DNA from: an uncultured Clostridia bacterium
Lineage (GTDB): Bacteria > Acidobacteriota > Blastocatellia > UBA7656
Length of the DNA stretch: 64,000 nucleotides
Direction of reading: 5' to 3'
Assembly: GCA_964548075.1 (NCBI GenBank)
Contig: CAZJQQ010000005.1
Location: forward strand, 64,252 to 128,251
The notes below the pieces were generated by a model. It did not search any database and was not told where the DNA came from. It was given only the letters and a program-made list of their open reading frames with translations. The translations under genes and the position numbers were made by a program. Positions 6,696 to 57,732 of this stretch are shown here, one piece after another. Each line of letters starts with the position of its first letter. Within the stretch, counting starts at the first letter, position 1.

Positions 6696-7418
6696 TCACT
6701 TGCCCTGTGGCGCTGACGCCGGCTTCTCGCCTTCGGCGCGAGGCTTGTTGTAGTCGCAGTCGATCGTGAACTGGAACACGCGGGCCACATCCGGGGTCTC
6801 GCCCTTCTTATCCGCGTCCTTCGCCGCATCCTTCTTGTCCGTGTCGTTCTTATCGCCTTCTTTCTTCTCGGCCCTGTCGGCCACGTCGTCGAGCTTCACT
6901 TCTTTGCCTTCGATCGAAAGCATCAGATTGCTGAACAGACCGTTTGAGAACTCGAGCTGGCGGGAGAAGTCCGCGATCACTTGCTGGTTGAGCGAGCTGC
7001 CGATGATCTGAAGGTGAGAACCCTTCTGCACGATCGCATCGAGGCGGAAGTCAGCCTGGCCACCGGGCATTCGCTCGTTGATGGCGGAGAGCATGGCGAC
7101 GGGACCTTTCTGCTCGGCTCGAAGCTGCTTGATGACCTTGATGCGTTCGTCGACCTGTTTCAACTCGGCTTCCAACTCGTCCTTGCGCTTGATGTCGGCT
7201 TCAAGCTTCTTGGCTTCTGCTTCTTCGCGCGTGAGCTCGGCCTGCGCGGCCGCGTGCGCGTTGTTGGTCCAAAGGTGATCGACGCCGATGGCGATCAGAA
7301 ACACCACCAGCGCGCTTGCGAGCATGAAGAGCTGCTGTCCACGGCGCGCGGCGACTTTTGTCTTCTGCACCGCAACGCGATGCTCGGCGGTCCCTCCAAG
7401 TAGATTGACTCTGATCAT
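6696..7418 (-). CDS. pilN: type IV pilus assembly protein PilN
   Basis: MIRVNLLG... fimbrial assembly N-terminus, one TM and a coiled coil; overlaps pilM by 4 nt. Carries a Lys/Asp-rich low-complexity insertion near the C-terminus. Confidence 0.7.
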   Translation of the reverse strand: MIRVNLLGGTAEHRVAVQKTKVAARRGQQLFMLASALVVFLIAIGVDHLWTNNAHAAAQAELTREEAEAKKLEADIKRKDELEAELKQVDERIKVIKQLRAEQKGPVAMLSAINERMPGGQADFRLDAIVQKGSHLQIIGSSLNQQVIADFSRQLEFSNGLFSNLMLSIEGKEVKLDDVADRAEKKEGDKNDTDKKDAAKDADKKGETPDVARVFQFTIDCDYNKPRAEGEKPASAPQGK

Positions 7419-50352: not shown

Positions 50353-50970
50353 TTATTTGATCTCTTTCACTCGCACGCTTCTGAACGACACCCGCGAAGT
50401 CGGATCGTGGTTCTGCAAACCAATGTAGCCCTCGATGCCGCGTGTGCCGTCAAACTCGTTCACCTTCTCGCCGTTCAGCACCACGGTGTAGTGCTGGCCC
50501 ACGATGGTGATCTGATACTTGTTCCACTCGCCGGCCGGCTTTGACGCAAGCCTTGTCGCTGCAAACTGGTCGTAAGCAGATCCAGTCTGAAACTTCAGCC
50601 CGTTCTTGTCGCAGTCATCAATCTGGATCTCGTAGCCCTTGGTGACCGCGTGCCACGGGTCATCGCTCTTCTCAGGAAAGCGAACAAAGATGCCCGAGTT
50701 ATTGCACTTGTTGTTCACCTTCCATTCGACCTCGAGCGTGTAATCCCGAAACGATCGCGTCTCGTAGAAGAGCAGTCCCATCCCGGCCTGAGTCACGAGT
50801 GCTCCGTCTTCGACCGCGAAACTTCCCTTTCCGATATGCTTCCACCCCGTCTGGTCTTTGCCGTTGAACAGCTCGATCCATTTGCCCGAGGGCTTTGTCT
50901 GCGGCATCGCAAACGCAGCAAGCGCTAAACTCAAGGCCAGCCCTGTTACTAACAATGTTTGTCTTCTCAA
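50353..50970 (-). CDS. DUF1080 (3-keto-disaccharide hydrolase-like) secreted protein
   Basis: Conserved DUF1080 core (WIELFNGKDQTGWKHIG...GYIGLQNHD). Proposed TTG start after RBS gggagg gives a Tat-like signal LRRQTLLVTGLALSLALAAFA. Upstream track codons lie in an AT-rich repeat region and are unlikely to be coding. Confidence 0.65.
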   Translation of the reverse strand: MRRQTLLVTGLALSLALAAFAMPQTKPSGKWIELFNGKDQTGWKHIGKGSFAVEDGALVTQAGMGLLFYETRSFRDYTLEVEWKVNNKCNNSGIFVRFPEKSDDPWHAVTKGYEIQIDDCDKNGLKFQTGSAYDQFAATRLASKPAGEWNKYQITIVGQHYTVVLNGEKVNEFDGTRGIEGYIGLQNHDPTSRVSFRSVRVKEIK

Positions 50971-51037
50971 CGTCGTCCTCCCGGCAATCCAAAATCGACA
51001 ATCACACAAATCGCAAATCGCAAATGTAAATCCAAAA

Positions 51038-52726
51038 TCACAGATTTCCCTTCTTGTGCTCTTCAACGATGTACTCACATGCTCGAACCGTCAGCGCCAT
51101 CATCGTCAGCGTAGGATTCTGACAACCGATCGACACGAAACACGCCCCGTCGGTCACGAACAGGTTCTTCACATCCCAGCTCTGATTGAACCGGTTCAAC
51201 ACCGACGTCTTCCGGTCGGCGCCCATGCGCGCGGTGCCGACTTCGTGAATGCACAAGCCCGGCGGCGCCAGGGTTTCACTCGCACGTGCCACCTCGAACC
51301 CCGCTTCGAGAACCATCTCCTTTATGCTTTCGAGCGCGTCGGCCGCCATTGCGCGTTCGTTGTCGCCGTGCGAGCAGTCGATGTGCGCCGCCGGAATTCC
51401 CCACTTGTCTTTGACGTTCTTGTTGATCGTCACGCGATTCTCTTTTCGCGCGAGCATCTCGCCCCACATCCCGATCGAAAACGGCGCGGCGTCCTTGACC
51501 TCGCGCACCATCTTCTTGAACTCGGAGCCGAAACCGGGAATCTGTTTCAAATTGGTCGGCAGCATCCCGCGTTGAGAGCTGCCTTGCATGCCGTACCCGC
51601 GAATGAATTTCGGATGCCGCTCGTTGACGTTTCGGAATTTCGGAATGTATATGCCGTTCGCACGTCCGTCGTCGTAGTTGTAAGGATACTTCGAAACCGC
51701 CGGCACGAGCCCGCTGACTCCGATCTGGAAGATATGATCCATCAGGTATTGACCCAGGACGCCCGACGAGTTTCCGAGCCCCGCTGGGTGCTGCCGCGTA
51801 GCGCTGTTCAGCAGCAAACGAGTCGATTCAATCGTCGAAGCGCAGAGCACGACGACTTTGCCGAAAACCTCGAACGCCTTCTTTGTCACCTGATCGATGC
51901 AGGCGATGCCTGTTGCTTTGCCGGTCTTGGCATCGACAATGACGTGACTCGCCACGGCGTTTGTACGCATTGTGAGCCTGCCGGTCTTGGCCGCGGCGGG
52001 AAGCGTCGAACCGGGACTGCTGAAATAAGAATAGGTCGAGCACCCCCGATCGCAATGCCCGCAGTAGTGACACGCCGCTCGGCCGTTGTGTCTTTGGGTC
52101 AGGATTGCTGTGCGGCCGATGGTGACTTTGCGATCTTTCCAGCGACGTTCGACTGCTCTCTTCAAGAGCTGCTCACCGCAGGTCATCTTCATCGCGGGAA
52201 GAAACTTTCCATCGGGAAGATTGGGAACGTTCTCGTAGGCGCCGCTGATGCCAACGAATTCTTCGACCTTGTCGTAGTAGGGCGCGAGTTCGGCGTAGGA
52301 AATCGGCCAGTCGACGTCGTAGCCGTCGCGGCTCGCGGCTTTGAATTCGTAATCCGACAAGCGATAGCTCTGGCGGCCCCAGGTGATCGTGCGCCCGCCT
52401 ACCTGCCGCCCACGAATCCAATCGAACGGCTTTCGATCAGCCGTGGTGTAAGGGTTATCGACATCGTCGACGAAGAACTGGTTTCCGTAGGCGTTACACG
52501 CGTAGCACTTTGATTGGACTTTTTGGCGCGCGCGGCTGGCGGCGGTGTATCGATCTCTGGCTTCGTAGGGAAACAGATGTTCTGTGAAATCCTTCTCCGG
52601 ATCGAGATTGCGCCCGGCTTCGAGCACGATCACGCGCATGCCTTTTTCGGTGAGCTCTTTCGCAGCCCACCCGCCAGTCGCGCCCGAGCCGACAACTATC
52701 GCGTCGTAGATTTCTTGTTTTGCCAT
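51038..52726 (-). CDS. GMC family FAD-dependent oxidoreductase
   Basis: [19 protein letters not shown]ossmann motif and a GMC C-terminal region (HEVGTARMG); 562 aa. Confidence 0.85.
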
Positions 52727-52761
52727 TCGGCGTCTCGCTATTCACGCTGACCGCAATACGA

Positions 52762-53025
52762 CTACCTGCGATAGACTTCGCTTCGATGCGCCACCTTAAC
52801 GATCGTTATGGCTACACCCTTGGCGTCGACTTCATAGATGACTCGGTAAGAACCCTCTCGAATCCGGTAAGTGTGTTCGGAGCCCTCCAGCTTGCGCGTG
52901 CCGACCGGATGTGGGTCGACTGCAAGAGCGTCAACCGCGGCAATGATTCGGGGAATCATGTCTTTAGGAAGATTCCTGAGTTCTTTGGCCGCAGAGCGCT
53001 TCCACTCGATCTCAAATGAGGCCAT
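52762..53025 (-). CDS. type II toxin, RelE/ParE family
   Basis: 87 aa: MASFEIEWKRSAAKELRNLPKDMIPRIIAAVDALAVDPHPVGTRKLEGSEHTYRIREGSYRVIYEVD, a typical plasmid-stabilisation toxin fold signature. Confidence 0.75.
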   Translation of the reverse strand: MASFEIEWKRSAAKELRNLPKDMIPRIIAAVDALAVDPHPVGTRKLEGSEHTYRIREGSYRVIYEVDAKGVAITIVKVAHRSEVYRR

Positions 53026-53212
53026 CCCGTTTCAACTCGGCAACCAGATCCCTGTGGGAGACAGTCGGTTCGTCACGCCGTTCGGCCGCAGACGCGAGGT
53101 CCTCAATGTCCTCGATCAGCTCTTGGAATCGATCGATCGGCAGTATGACCGCAGTCTTCTCCCCGGCTTCGTTTGTTACGTACTGCAGCTCAAGGTGCTT
53201 TATGTCCAACAT
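53012..53212 (-). CDS. type II antitoxin (Phd/YefM-like)
   Basis: Start chosen at MLDIKHLELQYVTNEAGEKTAVILPIDRFQELIEDIEDL; overlaps the toxin start by 14 nt. Confidence 0.6.
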   Translation of the reverse strand: MLDIKHLELQYVTNEAGEKTAVILPIDRFQELIEDIEDLASAAERRDEPTVSHRDLVAELKRDGLI

Positions 53213-53256
53213 GCTACTGCTCCAATACCATCTCCGCGCCGTGGTTGGGCGACGCT

Positions 53257-53976
53257 TCAATTCTTACCACTGGCCGCCAGCACCTGAAGCTGGATCAACA
53301 TCAGCCAAGTGCTGAGCCAGTTCATGAAGCCGGGCGTAGCCACGAGAACTCCGTGGTCGTCTCGGAAGGCGATACCGGCGATGCATGACGAAAATGATCC
53401 GTGAGAGAGCGCGTTCCTAATGCGTCTCACGTAGTCGGAGTTTAGTAGTTTCCGAATCTGTCCACAACATGGATTGCCATCTCGGGCACCTTCCCCAATA
53501 AGGTCGGTGAGTGTCCCTTCGCGCATATAAACTAGGGCCACATAAAGTCGAAGGACGAGAGACCCTTGGACTGTCATCCTGACTTTTACTGGGAGAGGTA
53601 GATCGAGTTGTTTGTCGAAAGGTGTTTTCGGAATCCCACCGTCACGACGATCGAGCGAGCTGGCGAGCGCAAACCAGAACACGCCACTTGATAGTTCCTC
53701 GAACTGCCGATCAGAAGTCAATGAGAAAGCAGAGATCTCACGCAGCAACTCCTCGCCAGTGAGGCGATTCGCGAGGTCATCAAGAATCCTACGACAAGCC
53801 TGAAATTGTCGTCGCAGTAGCGGATCGCTGAGCGCAGTGCTGAGAAGATTGGATTCTTGCGAAGAAACGGAATCGTCCCCAATTAATGCACTGACGTTAA
53901 GTCCAGCAGGAGGCCCTTCGTCGGTCATGCCATTTGCTGCATAGAAGTCGCGGAGAAGATTCCCAATATCATCCAT
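53257..53976 (-). CDS. hypothetical protein with HEPN-like R-N-x-x-x-H-G motif (possible Abi-like RNase)
   Basis: C-terminal VRRIRNALSHGSF matches the Rx4-6H HEPN motif flanked by N and G. Local GC about 52%, lower than the neighbours; adjacent to the RelE/antitoxin pair. Confidence 0.3.
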   Translation of the reverse strand: MDDIGNLLRDFYAANGMTDEGPPAGLNVSALIGDDSVSSQESNLLSTALSDPLLRRQFQACRRILDDLANRLTGEELLREISAFSLTSDRQFEELSSGVFWFALASSLDRRDGGIPKTPFDKQLDLPLPVKVRMTVQGSLVLRLYVALVYMREGTLTDLIGEGARDGNPCCGQIRKLLNSDYVRRIRNALSHGSFSSCIAGIAFRDDHGVLVATPGFMNWLSTWLMLIQLQVLAASGKN

Positions 53977-54007
53977 GGCGATTCCCACGTGTGTCGCCCA
54001 ACATACG

Positions 54008-54874
54008 CTAGCCAAGACCGAGCTTCAAAACTCCCCTCAGTGTTTCCTCGGCGTCTTTTGACGGCTTGAACTCCAACCCTACGAAGCCCTGATAACCAGT
54101 CGCAGCGATCGCGCGAAACACGTTCGCGTAATTCATCTCGCCTGTTCCAGGCTCGTGACGCCCCGGCACGTCGGCGACGTGAAAGTGAGCGATCTTCGAG
54201 ATGTTCTTGGTGATGTCCGCGATCACGTTCCCTTCCATGATCTGGTGATGATAGATGTCAAATAGCATCTTCACCGCCGGGCTGCCGACCTCATCGAGTA
54301 TCTCGAAACCTTCCTTCGCCGTCTCCAAGTAATAGCCCGCATGATCGACCTTGGTGTTAAGCGGTTCGAGCACGAGCGGGATCTGCGCGAATTCAGCCAG
54401 CGGCGCGACAGCCTTTAGCGCCGCTACGTAACCCGCGTGCTGCTCCGCTCGAGAAAGCTGCTTGTCCTCATTGCCGGTCGTTACGATCAGCGTTTTCGCG
54501 CCCAGACGTTTGGCCGCCGCGAGCGAGGCTTGAATATTCGACATAAAAGTCTTGCGAGCCTCGTCGGTGAACAACGGCTTCCAGCCCGAGCCCATGATCG
54601 TAGCTATCTCGAGCCCAAGCTCGTTCTTCTTGCGAATGATCGCGTCCACGTCTTTGTTCCGCCACTCCCAAAACTCGAAGGCGGGATAGCCGAGCCGCTT
54701 TACTCGCTCCATCCGTTCGAGGAATGGAAGATCGGTCATGATCATGTCGATGCAGACCGAGAGCCTTACGGGGCTCGACTTGGTCTGTGGAAATGATCGG
54801 GCGATCATTGGCGCCGCCGCGAATAACGCCGACGCGCCTGCTGCCTGCTTGAGAAAATGCCTACGATTGAGCAT
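54008..54874 (-). CDS. Tat-exported sugar phosphate isomerase/epimerase (xylose isomerase-like TIM barrel)
   Basis: Tat signal MLNRRHFLKQAAGASALFAAAP; TIM-barrel family metal-site pattern (…FEFWEW…, HFHVADV). Confidence 0.8.
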   Translation of the reverse strand: MLNRRHFLKQAAGASALFAAAPMIARSFPQTKSSPVRLSVCIDMIMTDLPFLERMERVKRLGYPAFEFWEWRNKDVDAIIRKKNELGLEIATIMGSGWKPLFTDEARKTFMSNIQASLAAAKRLGAKTLIVTTGNEDKQLSRAEQHAGYVAALKAVAPLAEFAQIPLVLEPLNTKVDHAGYYLETAKEGFEILDEVGSPAVKMLFDIYHHQIMEGNVIADITKNISKIAHFHVADVPGRHEPGTGEMNYANVFRAIAATGYQGFVGLEFKPSKDAEETLRGVLKLGLG

Positions 54875-54886
54875 ACCAACAACTCC

Positions 54887-55771
54887 TTACGATAGAGTGC
54901 GCTTCAGATACTCAAAGGCCGTTCGCGTTCCCTCGATTGGGTTTGCCGATTCCGGCTCGTATTCAATGTTTGCAGCGTACTTGAATTTGATCTGCTTTAG
55001 CAGCTTCATTGTCTCGGCTATCGGCGTCGCCGCTTCGCCGAATCTTCGCTGTGTGTGATCCGCGTCTTTGTCTCTGTCCTTGATGTGAAGACTCACAATG
55101 CGTTTGTGATGCTCGCGAATGTACGACACCGGATCAAACCCCGCCGCATAAAAGTGCCCGACATCAAGATTGATGCTCAGATACTCGGACGCGCCCTTCA
55201 ACGCGCTCGCGAAATCATCCGGCGTTTCAAACTCCTGACTCCTGTTCCCCTTGAATCCTGCGTAGCCAAACCAGTGATTGTGCAGCCCGAGTTTGATTCT
55301 GTATTTCTGGCACCACTGATCGAGCTTTGGCACGATCGGTTTCTTCACCGACGCGGTCATCACGTTGGTTCCGAGCAGCAGCGCGCCGTTGAATCCGCGA
55401 TCCAGATAATCGTCCTTTGAGTCGACGGGAAAGTTCACGCAATAAGCGCCGACACGAATCCCGGCGTCGTCGAACTTCTTCTTGATCACCTTGAAATCGG
55501 CCTCAGAGGCCTTTCCTGGGTTCAGGTGTCCGTCCCACAGCTCGATGTTGCTCAAGCCGATGGCGACCATCGCTTCAATCATCTTATCGACGCTGAAAGC
55601 GCGGAACGTGTAGCTCTGCACTCCGACTTGAATGCCGCCGAATATCGAAGGTTTTACTTTGTCGCTTGGTGATCTGAACCCAAACCCGGTGACTGCTCCG
55701 GCCAATCCCAAACCGAATTGTCTTCGTGTGATTTGTTCCACAGTGGTCCCCTTTCTATTCCAGTGCTTCAT
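54887..55771 (-). CDS. Tat-exported sugar phosphate isomerase/epimerase (xylose isomerase-like TIM barrel)
   Basis: Internal start MKHWNRKGTTVEQITRRQFGLGLAGAVTGFGF (Tat motif), then the TIM-barrel family pattern (…NIELWDGH…, LGLHNHW…). Confidence 0.75.
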   Translation of the reverse strand: MKHWNRKGTTVEQITRRQFGLGLAGAVTGFGFRSPSDKVKPSIFGGIQVGVQSYTFRAFSVDKMIEAMVAIGLSNIELWDGHLNPGKASEADFKVIKKKFDDAGIRVGAYCVNFPVDSKDDYLDRGFNGALLLGTNVMTASVKKPIVPKLDQWCQKYRIKLGLHNHWFGYAGFKGNRSQEFETPDDFASALKGASEYLSINLDVGHFYAAGFDPVSYIREHHKRIVSLHIKDRDKDADHTQRRFGEAATPIAETMKLLKQIKFKYAANIEYEPESANPIEGTRTAFEYLKRTLS

Positions 55772-55847
55772 AAAGCGGGCGCGAATGCGTGGCATCATAG
55801 TGGAAGACTCTGCAAAGCGCAAAGGCCAGAAAAGCAAGGGCAGAAGA

Positions 55848-55923
55848 GCATGGAGTTCAGGCTTTAGCCTGGTCTTGGCTCGGCCAATCAGAACGAACAC
55901 AGGCTAAAGCCTGAACTCCATGC
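55848..55923. promoter_or_regulatory. 23-bp perfect inverted repeat in divergent promoter region (candidate operator or palindromic element)
   Basis: catggagttcaggctttagcctg (55849-55871) pairs with caggctaaagcctgaactccatg (55900-55922), 28-nt spacer. Located between the divergently transcribed isomerase (start 55771) and GMC oxidoreductase (start 56023). Confidence 0.5.
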
Positions 55924-56022
55924 ATCTTCTATCTCGGCGCTTTGCCCTTTGCTCTCTTCTGCTTCTCTGTGATAGCTTCTCGCGCGTCAACCATCTAGTA
56001 CACGCTCACGCCGGAGGCCGCA

Positions 56023-57732
56023 GTGGCACAGCAGAAGACCTACGACGCAATAATCATCGGCTCGGGCGCCACCGGCGGGATGGCCGCAAAAGAACTCACC
56101 GAGCGCGGCATGCAAGTGCTCGTGCTCGAAGCCGGCCCGCCCGTGAATCCCGCACGCGACCTCAGCTCCCACCGCTGGCCTTTCCAGTCCATGTATCGCG
56201 GCTTTGGCGCGCCCGGTTGGAAAGACCAGGATCAATGGATGCAAGCGACCGCCGGCGAGTTTAGCCGCCAGTTCTACGTCAAAGACACCGAGCATCCTTA
56301 CACCACCGATCCGGGCAAACCCTTCCTCTGGGTGCGGGCGCGAATCGTCGGCGGGAAGACGCTTCACTGGGGACGCATGTCCTATCGGCACTCGGACCTT
56401 GATTTCAAAGCCGCCAGCAACGACGGCTTCGGCGACGACTGGCCAATTAGCTACCAGGAACTTGCCCCGTACTACGACAAAGCCGAAGAGTTCATAGGCG
56501 TGAGCGGAAACCGCGACGGCTTGCCGCACCTGCCCGACGGAAACTTCATGCCGCCCATGAAGCTCAACTGCGGCGAGCACCTCCTGCGCAAAGGCGCGGA
56601 GAAAGTTGGACGGCGCGGAATCCCAATGCGGCTGGCGATGCTCACCGGACAGCCCAAGGCCCATATGAAAGGGCGCCTGAAGTGTCACTACTGCGGCAAC
56701 TGCGGCGACGGCTGTGATGTTGGAGCGATGTTCAACTCGCTCAGTTCGACGCTGCCGGTGGCTGAAGCGACCGGCCGGATGACGCTCCGGCCCAATTCGA
56801 TTGTCCGGCACATAATCGTCGACACAAATACGAGCAAGGCCAAAGGCGTCGCCTTTGTAGATCGAGTCACTCATCAGGAGTATGAGGCAGTTGGCAAAAT
56901 AATCGTGCTCGGCGCGTCGACTCTCGAATCGACTCGCATTTTGCTCAACTCGAAGTCGCGGCAGCATCCGAATGGACTTGGCAATTCCTCGGGCAAGCTG
57001 GGTCATTACTTGATGGACCACTTCGGCGGAATCGGCGCGAGCGGCTACTTCAACGTGCTCGCCAGCCGCGATCCGGTGAATGAAGACGGCAAGACTTCCG
57101 GCTTGCTGATACCCCGGTTCCGCAACGTGAGCAAAGAAACAAAGCAGCAGCGTTTTGTTCGCGGCTACGGGTTCGAGTGTGGTTCGGGCGCGCGCATGTT
57201 TCCCGCGTTCGTCAAGAACCCGGCGGTGACGCCCGGCTTCGGCTCGGAATTCAAACAGCGAGTGCGGCGCTACTACACGACTCCGGTGAGCCTGACGACT
57301 CGCGCAGAGATGCTCGCGCGGATTGAGAACTACGCGGAGATCGACCCGGCTGGCGTCGTCGACGCGTGGGGCATACCGGTGTTGAAGATCCACATCCAGT
57401 ACTCGGACAACGAGCGCGAGATGGCTCGCGACGCCGCGCAAACCAGCGAAGAGATACTTCGCGCAGCGGGCGCAGAGGTTGTCTCGACTGGAGGCCGTAT
57501 GACCGCGCCGGGGCGGATCATTCACGAGCTGGGCACTGCGCGCATGGGCAATGACCCGAAGACGTCGGTGCTGAACAAGTTCAATCAGAGTTGGGACGTG
57601 AAGAACTTGTTTGTAATTGACGGCGCATGCTTCGTTACGAGCGCGAACCAGAACCCGACGCTTACGATGCTGGCGCTGACGATGCGCGCGTGTGATCGAC
57701 TCGCGGATGAGTACAAGAGAGGGAATCTTTAA
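56023..57732 (+). CDS. GMC family FAD-dependent oxidoreductase (paralog of 51038-52726)
   Basis: YDAIIIGSGATGGMAAKEL and a GMC C-terminal region (HELGTARMG); 569 aa. Confidence 0.85.
   Translation: MAQQKTYDAIIIGSGATGGMAAKELTERGMQVLVLEAGPPVNPARDLSSHRWPFQSMYRGFGAPGWKDQDQWMQATAGEFSRQFYVKDTEHPYTTDPGKPFLWVRARIVGGKTLHWGRMSYRHSDLDFKAASNDGFGDDWPISYQELAPYYDKAEEFIGVSGNRDGLPHLPDGNFMPPMKLNCGEHLLRKGAEKVGRRGIPMRLAMLTGQPKAHMKGRLKCHYCGNCGDGCDVGAMFNSLSSTLPVAEATGRMTLRPNSIVRHIIVDTNTSKAKGVAFVDRVTHQEYEAVGKIIVLGASTLESTRILLNSKSRQHPNGLGNSSGKLGHYLMDHFGGIGASGYFNVLASRDPVNEDGKTSGLLIPRFRNVSKETKQQRFVRGYGFECGSGARMFPAFVKNPAVTPGFGSEFKQRVRRYYTTPVSLTTRAEMLARIENYAEIDPAGVVDAWGIPVLKIHIQYSDNEREMARDAAQTSEEILRAAGAEVVSTGGRMTAPGRIIHELGTARMGNDPKTSVLNKFNQSWDVKNLFVIDGACFVTSANQNPTLTMLALTMRACDRLADEYKRGNL

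Follow-up and report, generated by a model that had tools for sequence, protein, structure and literature searches.

Three co-directional minus-strand open reading frames (ORFs) lie between a TIM-barrel gene (TIM1) and a GMC oxidoreductase gene (GMC1) in the genome of a soil bacterium of the Blastocatellia (Acidobacteriota), within a 64-kb stretch of contig CAZJQQ010000005.1 that was analysed as a whole and is called the window here. They encode a toxin-antitoxin (TA) pair and a hypothetical protein with HEPN-like features. On balance we favour an explanation in which these are two separately acquired modules, a HEPN-like gene cassette stranded outside any integron and, beside it, a TA operon. 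The initial annotation of this DNA had described three minus-strand genes (a toxin of 87 amino acids, an antitoxin of about 66 and a hypothetical protein of about 240) interrupting a sugar-oxidation gene cluster. The genes are indeed where it placed them, they are flanked by the TIM-barrel and GMC oxidoreductase genes, and the gap that they occupy is empty in relatives. The features on which the argument draws are listed below; a slash within a sequence marks a junction.

51038-52726: GMC oxidoreductase gene (GMC1)
52762-53025, minus strand: RelE/ParE-superfamily toxin gene, 87 amino acids (Pfam PF05016 ParE_toxin)
53012-53212, minus strand: RelB-like antitoxin gene, 66 amino acids from ATG 53212 (Pfam PF18506)
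about 53232-54002, minus strand: segment of about 770 bp, present in the window and in the related locus L016 and missing from locus L012, which has the TA genes only (junction comparison)
53244-53253, minus strand: putative attC remnant GTCGCCCAAC with inverse core R'' GCCCAAC (RYYYAAC), 3 nt past the stop codon
53257-53988, minus strand: probably cassette-borne HEPN-like hypothetical gene, 243 amino acids from GTG 53988 (239 from ATG 53976)
53993-54002, minus strand: putative cassette 5' boundary GTTGGGCGAC with core site G/TTGGGC (GTTRRRY), 4 nt upstream of GTG 53988
54008-54874: xylose-isomerase-like TIM-barrel gene with a twin-arginine translocation (Tat) signal (TIM1)

The hypothetical gene is separated from the antitoxin gene by 44 nt. 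Its start is more probably GTG 53988 than ATG 53976: homologues have their ATG where the window has this GTG, and at the window's ATG 53976 the closest relative reads ATT.

Comparison with related loci

The window proteins were mapped by tblastn on 16 related loci. TIM1 is directly joined to GMC1, with 7-140 nt between them, in at least eight Blastocatellia relatives (L011, L014, L015, L018, L022-L025); one relative (L012) carries at the same site an antitoxin and a frameshifted toxin only, with no hypothetical gene, and one (L016, Chersky_418) has all three genes, at amino-acid identities of 96%, 89% and 92%. This is the comparison with orthologous clusters by which the initial annotation had proposed to confirm an insertion, and its outcome bears the proposal out. 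Judging from these loci, it is highly probable that the three genes were inserted. Read across the junctions, L012 has GTATG/ATGGCCGTAATCGGAGCATTGACATG and the window GTATG/TTGGGCGAC...GCGCGGAG/ATGGTATTGGAGCAGTAGCATG, and the segment of about 770 bp that this comparison sets off carries the hypothetical gene alone.

Synonymous divergence (dS) dates the arrivals relative to one another. Between the window and L016 it is 0.065 for the hypothetical gene, 0.24 for ParE and 0.32 for RelB, against 1.17 for TIM1 and 0.94 for GMC1; between the window and L012 it is 0.165 for RelB and 0.98 for TIM1, the GMC1 value being left out as an indel spoiled the comparison. Given these much lower values, the inserted genes appear far younger than the host genes on either side, and the hypothetical gene, at 0.065 against 0.2-0.3, appears to have arrived later than the TA pair. 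It is this gradation (0.065, then 0.2-0.3, then about 1) that gives the order of events.

Composition agrees in part with what had been described. The initial annotation had reported a visibly lower GC content, about 52% against about 60%; a dip does exist, but it is small, the interval 52740-54015 having 54.0% GC against a window mean of 56.9% (11th percentile among equal-sized windows), and the earlier figures do not stand. The clear compositional anomaly is the third-position GC (GC3) of the hypothetical gene and not overall GC: at 52.5% it is the lowest of 35 window genes, the others averaging 69.9 +/- 5.2, with ParE at 60.2% and RelB at 67.2%.

The reverse history, in which the three genes are ancestral to the operon and were repeatedly lost in relatives, would account for a TA pair at the identical site in three genomes, and in their flanking genes the genomes with and without the insert stand at about the same distance from the window. 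We nevertheless find this history barely credible. The dS of the inserted genes is 4 to 18 times below that of the flanks, GC3 is atypical, and cassette boundary motifs are present (see below); among 185,579 species genomes the HEPN-like family is confined to 34, two of them Blastocatellia; and unrelated genes occupy the same gap in other relatives. These are an ORF of 164-190 amino acids from a family without assignment (L013:6917-7411 and L019:6887-7459) and an ORF of 359 amino acids (L017:6922-8001). The gap between TIM1 and GMC1 is, as far as these loci indicate, a recurrent landing site for unrelated genes.

Two further observations concern the same gap. In L020 (2100-2480) it holds a long perfect palindrome, CTCTCAGGCCGGGAAGGGCGGCTTGCCCCCGC...GCGGGGGCAAGCCGCCCTTCCCGGCCTGAGAG, and no genes, and in L018 (6860-6950) an 18-bp hairpin; both look like repetitive extragenic palindromic (REP)-like or terminator-like elements.

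Boundaries of the hypothetical gene

A perfect 10-bp inverted repeat brackets the hypothetical gene, GTTGGGCGAC at 53993-54002 and GTCGCCCAAC at 53244-53253, and a repeat of this length was reached in 6 of 1000 shuffles. The default repeat finder (minimum 12 nt) was too coarse for it, and it was seen by comparison of the flanks. The recombination sites of integron cassettes, attC, form an imperfect hairpin of the order R''-L''...L'-R', with a core site GTTRRRY and an inverse core RYYYAAC, and the two arms of the window's repeat contain what we take to be this core site and its inverse. The hypothetical gene is probably an integron gene cassette, an origin that the initial annotation missed.

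At the 5' boundary, the window has GTTGGGC at 53996-54002 (minus strand), and similarity among loci from different phyla starts exactly at G/TT of the core site G/TTRGGC (alignment A9). A core site stands no more than 50 nt upstream of the gene in 5 of 27 loci against 0.03 expected per locus, and both boxes stand at the expected places in 4 of the 27 against 0.02 expected. The arms covary elsewhere, reading GTTAGGCGAC and GTCGCCTAAC in a deltaproteobacterium (L056) and TGTTAGGCAC and GTGCCTAACA in an Aquimarina homologue of 38% identity (L068).

At the 3' boundary, the window's R'' is homologous to the R'' that opens full attC sites after the gene in four other loci (L041, L056, L064 and L044). 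R'' includes the stop codon in L041 and L056 and is followed by a 60-nt imperfect hairpin with bulged bases that ends in GTTRRNY, with fold z-scores of -5.2 and -3.1 respectively. A covariance model built from an alignment of 66 attC sites finds attC directly after the gene and on its strand in all four, at 84 (L041), 80.5 (L056), 38.5 (L064) and 28.2 bits (L044). The alignment itself supports the R''/L''/L'/R' pairing, with 90.7% paired and 12 pairs showing compensatory change; the pairing was reached by none of 500 shuffles, and a slid control likewise fell short of it. Two other candidates were set aside: an attC-like match after the gene of the closest outside homologue (L005) was not counted, as it scored 24 bits with default filters and 4.6 with filters off, and a crude finder combining a regular expression with folding returned three sites and no arrays and was too strict for use.

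The attC type of this family has a wide distribution of its own. An exact copy of its 29-nt core GCAGCGGACGGCGCTGCGCGCCGCCGCTG was found in more than 120 species genomes (L074-L193; consensus alignment A8) from Acidobacteriota, Planctomycetota, Gemmatimonadota, Chloroflexota, Nitrospirota, Proteobacteria and other phyla, and a Hadarchaeum archaeon (L139) has the core together with an IntI1-like gene. The L'' and L' arms that flank the core covary (AGCAT/ATGCT, CGGTT/AACCG, CGCTT/AACCGC). An IntI1 tblastn match lies within 8 kb of the core in 18 of at least 120 loci; about nine of these matches are near full length, at 45-72% identity, and the others are partial. By these matches, the attC type of the family is one used by integron integrases.

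Several results weigh against a cassette origin in the window itself. The window keeps R'' and about 15 nt of attC only, and scores 4.5 bits with the covariance model (E 2.5) and a fold z of -0.16, which is to say no detectable attC. Neither the 64-kb window nor any family locus has an integrase that IntI1 tblastn could detect, and a Pfam scan of 10 window ORFs found none either. Recognisable cassette signatures occur in only about a quarter of the homologous loci. The right junction is not a clean recombination product, and therefore a later deletion or illegitimate event must be assumed; of the two junctions the left is the only one that points to integrase-mediated insertion here. That left junction (host G/TT cassette) is compatible with an off-site insertion by an integrase. 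On its sequence the window copy is a stranded cassette, with an intact 5' core site and an attC reduced to R'' and a few bases.

Insertion outside integrons has precedent: attG sites have been reported as targets of cassettes (Loot et al. 2024, cited in PMC11023631). Compared with such non-classical (secondary or attG) insertions, as far as that source describes them, the window likewise has a lone chromosomal cassette with no IntI or attI nearby, and a left junction that reads host-G/TT-cassette, the target in the TA-only locus L012 reading G/AT. Its right end differs from the insertions outlined there in having no intact attC/target junction. Cassette status would explain the patchy spread of the gene between phyla at high identity, and likewise the missing partner gene and the frequent neighbours of TA, restriction-modification or small-ORF type.

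An alternative is that the inverted repeat acts in RNA, its 3' arm pairing with the 5' arm at the ribosome-binding region and silencing translation as in hok-type toxins, in place of a protein antitoxin. The arms are suitably placed, one 4 nt before the GTG (16 nt before ATG 53976) and the other 3 nt past the stop codon, they covary between loci, when joined they fold at -12.8 kcal/mol (z -3.3), and the gene has no protein partner. We consider this role very improbable nonetheless. Both boxes are the canonical integron R' and R'', the 3' box of other loci has its local pairing partner inside a full attC and not in the 5' box, about 740 nt separate the arms, and the repeat is already mismatched in L016, a close relative.

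In the deltaproteobacterial locus a further site was noted upstream of the cassette (L056:3925-3960), where an inverse core abuts a core site, GCGCCTAAC/GTTAGGCGAC, with no L'', loop or L' between them. It looks like a collapsed attC.

The hypothetical protein and its motif

The hypothetical protein has 213 homologues of 59-89% identity and about 245 amino acids, from Acidobacteriota, Verrucomicrobiota, Planctomycetota, Proteobacteria, Chloroflexota and other phyla, and the family amounts to 86 clusters at 50% identity in a search of 1.8 billion representatives. The 34 species genomes that carry it are scattered over at least ten phyla, at about 60-66% identity. No match of the protein was found among Pfam, NCBIfam, PADLOC and PHROG models; a XopG match at E 0.27 was dismissed as meaningless.

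According to the initial annotation the protein ended with VRRIRNALSHGSF. The sequence is present, but it is internal (residues 183-195 of 239), with a three-stranded sheet and a 23-residue helix after it. It holds the candidate motif R187-N188-A-L-S-H192-G193 (ATG numbering), and the HEPN-type R-N-x3-H-G pattern that had been recognised there is well supported: RN-x3-H is kept in every representative spanning the region and lies at the C-terminal end of a helix. Conservation was assessed in alignments of 30 close and 37 diverse members, the diverse set reaching 20% identity. R187-N188-A-L-S-H192 is unchanged at its R, N and H in both sets. In the 37-sequence alignment R187, N188, H192 and D206, an acidic residue located after the motif, are the only invariant residues, and R184 and G193 come close to invariance; among close members only, E153 (in YMRE) does not vary either, and R/K152 is near-invariant. 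An AlphaFold2 (AF2) model (predicted local distance difference test 91.5, predicted template modelling score 0.88) is helical with a small beta-meander, and places the motif at the C-terminal end of helix 181-191, with H192 as the first residue past it; a three-stranded meander (194-213) comes next and then a long helix (215-237). In the HEPN survey Rx4-6H closes helix 3, where the connector to helix 4 begins, and the motif's R is directly followed by N, D or H (PMC3710099). Both the Rx4-6H pattern with a polar residue after R and the helix-end position are found in the hypothetical protein.

The relationship was pursued at the level of profiles. Sub-threshold matches to PF18736 occur in 8 of 37 family members, any other family being matched by two at most, and the best relatives reach 16.2 bits (E 0.009) against a gathering threshold of 26.6. 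With hhalign, the family alignment matches a 30-sequence PF18736 alignment over 75 columns at a probability of 76% and P 2.3e-5; the latter alignment was built from the pEK499_p136 gene, whose product scores 168 bits against PF18736. The matched stretch begins at residue 142 and sets the two RN..H motifs against each other, as well as the two F-x-D motifs of the strand that follows, and its score of 39.1 compares with a maximum of 26.0 in 100 column shuffles and 13 for the reversed alignment. For orientation, the original HEPN survey took HHpred probabilities of 75-98% (PMC3710099). In an independent AF2 model of a PF18736 member, too, helix, motif, three strands and long helix follow one another in this order. 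We think it fairly likely, from these alignments, that the C-terminal half of the hypothetical protein is a divergent HEPN domain related to pEK499_p136. The protein is not itself a PF18736 member, as it falls below the cut-off. The initial annotation had suggested Abi_2, DUF4145, Swt1 or RiboL-PSP as the families to compare; no relationship to any of them appeared, the only recurrent faint Pfam signal being PF18736.

Set against this assignment, the window protein has no Pfam match even at E ≤ 1, and the acidic residue of HEPN helix 2 (Ex3[KR]) is not invariant in the family. The hhalign P is uncorrected for a database-wide search, because PF18736 was picked after the faint Pfam matches, and it would fail correction for choosing this family among about 25,000 in Pfam. 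Foldseek of the full model against PDB and BFVD gave nothing significant (best E 1.6 and 0.85), and among the PDB matches listed the sole HEPN was HepT 6m6u_G, at rank 11 with E 3.1. This last negative is uninformative, since the model of a PF18736 member, a bona fide HEPN control, was equally without a significant match (best E 2.3, with HepT and AF_0298 at E 5.5-6.1). Sequence-profile searches of the PDB returned low-complexity designed helical repeats only, and an intermediate search through short-form relatives toward PF18736-annotated proteins gave 14 matches, none with a Pfam domain.

The same results can be read to mean that the protein is not a nuclease, that R-N-x3-H-G serves ligand or nucleic-acid binding or a structural role, and that the similarity to PF18736 is convergent or too weak. 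In support of this, there is no fold match to HEPN structures, every Pfam match lies below cut-off and the hhalign probability is just 76%; identities of 60-70% across phyla are unusual for fast-evolving toxins, no partner antitoxin accompanies the gene, and some HEPN families are non-catalytic (PMC3710099). We hold it to be unlikely, as R, N, H and D (with R184 and G193) stay invariant down to 20% identity, a catalytic-site pattern and not a structural one, the position of the motif agrees with HEPN helix 3, and the Pfam-curated HEPN control is just as invisible to Foldseek.

Taking the HEPN assignment as the preferred one, pEK499_p136 (PF18736; Anantharaman et al. 2013, PMC3710099) is the nearest described protein. 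It shares R-N-x-x-x-H at the end of a helix, then a three-stranded beta-meander with a conserved F-x-D and a long C-terminal helix, and both it and the members of the window family are small stand-alone proteins on mobile DNA. The window protein is about 80 residues longer at its N-terminus, and the invariant N-terminal residues of PF18736 (F11, R14, T15, Y22, NCLLG) are missing from its family. The two also differ in context, the PF18736 gene of pEK499 having downstream a 257-amino-acid partner, whereas the window family is without a partner gene.

That downstream ORF (L037:42240-43013) lies 12 nt from the pEK499_p136 gene, has no Pfam or PADLOC match and may be an unrecognised partner of pEK499_p136; a search for similarity to it found none. 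The pEK499_p136 locus is flanked by two VapBC pairs.

The toxin-antitoxin pair and its relation to the hypothetical gene

The RelE/ParE toxin-antitoxin pair of the initial annotation stands, with both Pfam scores above cut-off and the antitoxin upstream. The toxin matches PF05016 ParE_toxin at E 1.3e-12 and 48.6 bits (cut-off 23), and the antitoxin matches PF18506 RelB-like at E 2.8e-7 and 30.7 bits (cut-off 27); the antitoxin gene is upstream of the toxin gene and co-directional with it, overlapping its start by 14 nt. By these matches the pair is an ordinary type II module of the RelE/ParE superfamily, like RelBE and ParDE systems in its families, its gene order and overlap, and its typical sizes of 87 and 66 amino acids. 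The toxin is placed at superfamily level, which takes in RelE-like toxins acting on mRNA and ParE-like toxins acting on gyrase; its score of 27.3 bits against NCBIfam TIGR02385 RelE_StbE is slightly below the cut-off of 27.9. Going by what is known of the family, the toxin is presumably a ribosome-dependent mRNA interferase, its C-terminal end, ...HRSEVYRR, resembling in our estimation the R/Y catalytic region of E. coli RelE. A search for further toxin relatives gave two known loci and one distant match only.

No cassette signatures were found around the TA pair, nor around the other occupants of the gap (L013, L017, L019, L020). The window antitoxin is 95% identical to the same-site antitoxin in L012 and 89% to that in L016. 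In L012 (7084-7345) a frameshift near 7232 breaks the ParE/RelE toxin gene into two frames, which suggests decay of the toxin while the antitoxin has kept its similarity to that of the window.

The initial annotation had seen in the HEPN gene and the TA pair a phage-defence islet, and the three genes could form one functional unit, with the HEPN-like protein working with RelBE or under its control. They are adjacent and co-directional, with a 44-nt and an overlapping junction, and a type II TA pair adjoins the family in three of about ten well-sampled contexts (RelBE here, HigBA-like in L005 and L006). This part of the initial annotation was not sustained, and we regard such a unit as improbable. 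When the neighbouring ORFs of 32 family loci were clustered, no recurring neighbour gene was found, the orthologous L016 aside, and therefore the tie between the HEPN-like gene and the TA pair appears positional and not functional. The neighbouring TA pairs belong to different families and stand on the opposite strand in L005 and L006, the same site in L012 has a TA pair without the HEPN-like gene, and dS points to different arrival times. TA modules and orphan genes are moreover both common integron cargo, which would be enough to bring them together without any functional tie. The locus is better explained by two modules arriving independently at a permissive gap than by an islet of HEPN gene and TA pair.

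One neighbourhood of another kind was observed on a Planctomycetota contig (L004:7082-7942), where a homologue lies directly downstream of a fused nucleotidyltransferase-HEPN (MNT-HEPN) gene, within an array-like run of small same-strand ORFs.

Proposed mechanism and role

We propose that two selfish or accessory modules landed separately in one permissive intergenic gap of the sugar-oxidation operon. The first would have been the type II TA operon, and the second, immediately upstream of it, a single-gene integron cassette stranded outside an integron. With attC reduced to R'' and a few bases, excision by an integron integrase is probably no longer possible. A search of the three genes and the spaces between them found neither promoter-like nor terminator-like sites. 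Sigma-70-like promoters were not found anywhere in the region, and the two matches of terminator-like kind, fewer than the shuffle expectation, both lie outside the three genes. Because no promoter-like site was found, the cassette gene is presumed to be transcribed by read-through from the sugar operon.

The protein, by analogy with characterised HEPN enzymes, would be a metal-independent HEPN-type ribonuclease (RNase). Its active site would consist of R187, N188, H192 and perhaps D206, and would probably be completed by dimerisation. The N-terminal helical extension, which puts about 85 residues ahead of the putative HEPN core, may regulate or sense and so gate the activity. As a tentative suggestion, and by analogy, the protein could be a stand-alone growth-arrest effector of the abortive-infection type, triggered by stress or phage, with a role in defence. 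Chromosomal integrons carry TA modules as well as anti-phage cassettes with a single HEPN-like gene, and single-gene cassettes of this HEPN-like kind protect Vibrio cholerae from phages (bioRxiv 10.1101/2024.07.02.601686). Two findings count against a defence role: several homologues sit among housekeeping genes, and PADLOC-DB 2.0 gave no match at E ≤ 1 for the three window proteins. Distant relatives and pEK499_p136 likewise had no match there at E ≤ 0.1.

The closest described counterparts are anti-phage cassettes of sedentary chromosomal integrons with one HEPN-type gene, such as Esos and Taranis in the Vibrio cholerae superintegron (bioRxiv 10.1101/2024.07.02.601686), and the 'integron cassette HEPN' family (PDB 3jrt; PMC3710099). 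All follow the same plan of a promoterless single-ORF cassette in which a HEPN-like domain is the sole recognisable feature, and TA cassettes stand alongside; Esos and Taranis are likened to the window gene by description and not by sequence. To 3jrt the window protein showed no detected similarity in sequence or fold, and 3jrt is absent among the best 50 of 96 Foldseek matches. Unlike these counterparts, the window copy no longer has its attC and is not part of an integron.

More speculatively still, the family may constitute an undescribed stand-alone defence or growth-arrest system, a self-regulated HEPN-like RNase with an N-terminal sensor and a pEK499_p136-like core, free of a partner, spread as a cassette through at least ten phyla at 60-70% identity and able to become fixed outside integrons by loss of attC.

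The ingredients are all of known kinds (type II TA, HEPN nuclease, integron cassette, off-site cassette insertion) and there is no new principle. The novelty lies in a cassette family that is well conserved and unannotated and offers a clear active-site candidate, and in a tidy example of cassette fixation within an Acidobacteriota metabolic operon. Environmental integron cassettes mostly encode proteins of unknown function, and recent work finds many compact anti-phage systems among them. The value of this family lies in its lack of annotation in the tested libraries, its unusual conservation across phyla, its clear candidate catalytic site and its small size. The window offers a natural example of how a cassette may leave integrons, here with a gene trapped in a metabolic operon beside an older TA insertion.

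The surrounding gene cluster

No tRNA genes or Rfam families were found in the region. The sugar cluster (window 50353-57732) is internally duplicated, with two GMC oxidoreductases (51038-52726 and 56023-57732), about 52% identical to one another on related loci, and two TIM-barrel genes (54008-54874 and 54887-55900). It also holds a 3-keto-disaccharide hydrolase-like (DUF1080) gene and a gene of the nucleoside/H+ symporter type of the major facilitator superfamily (MFS).

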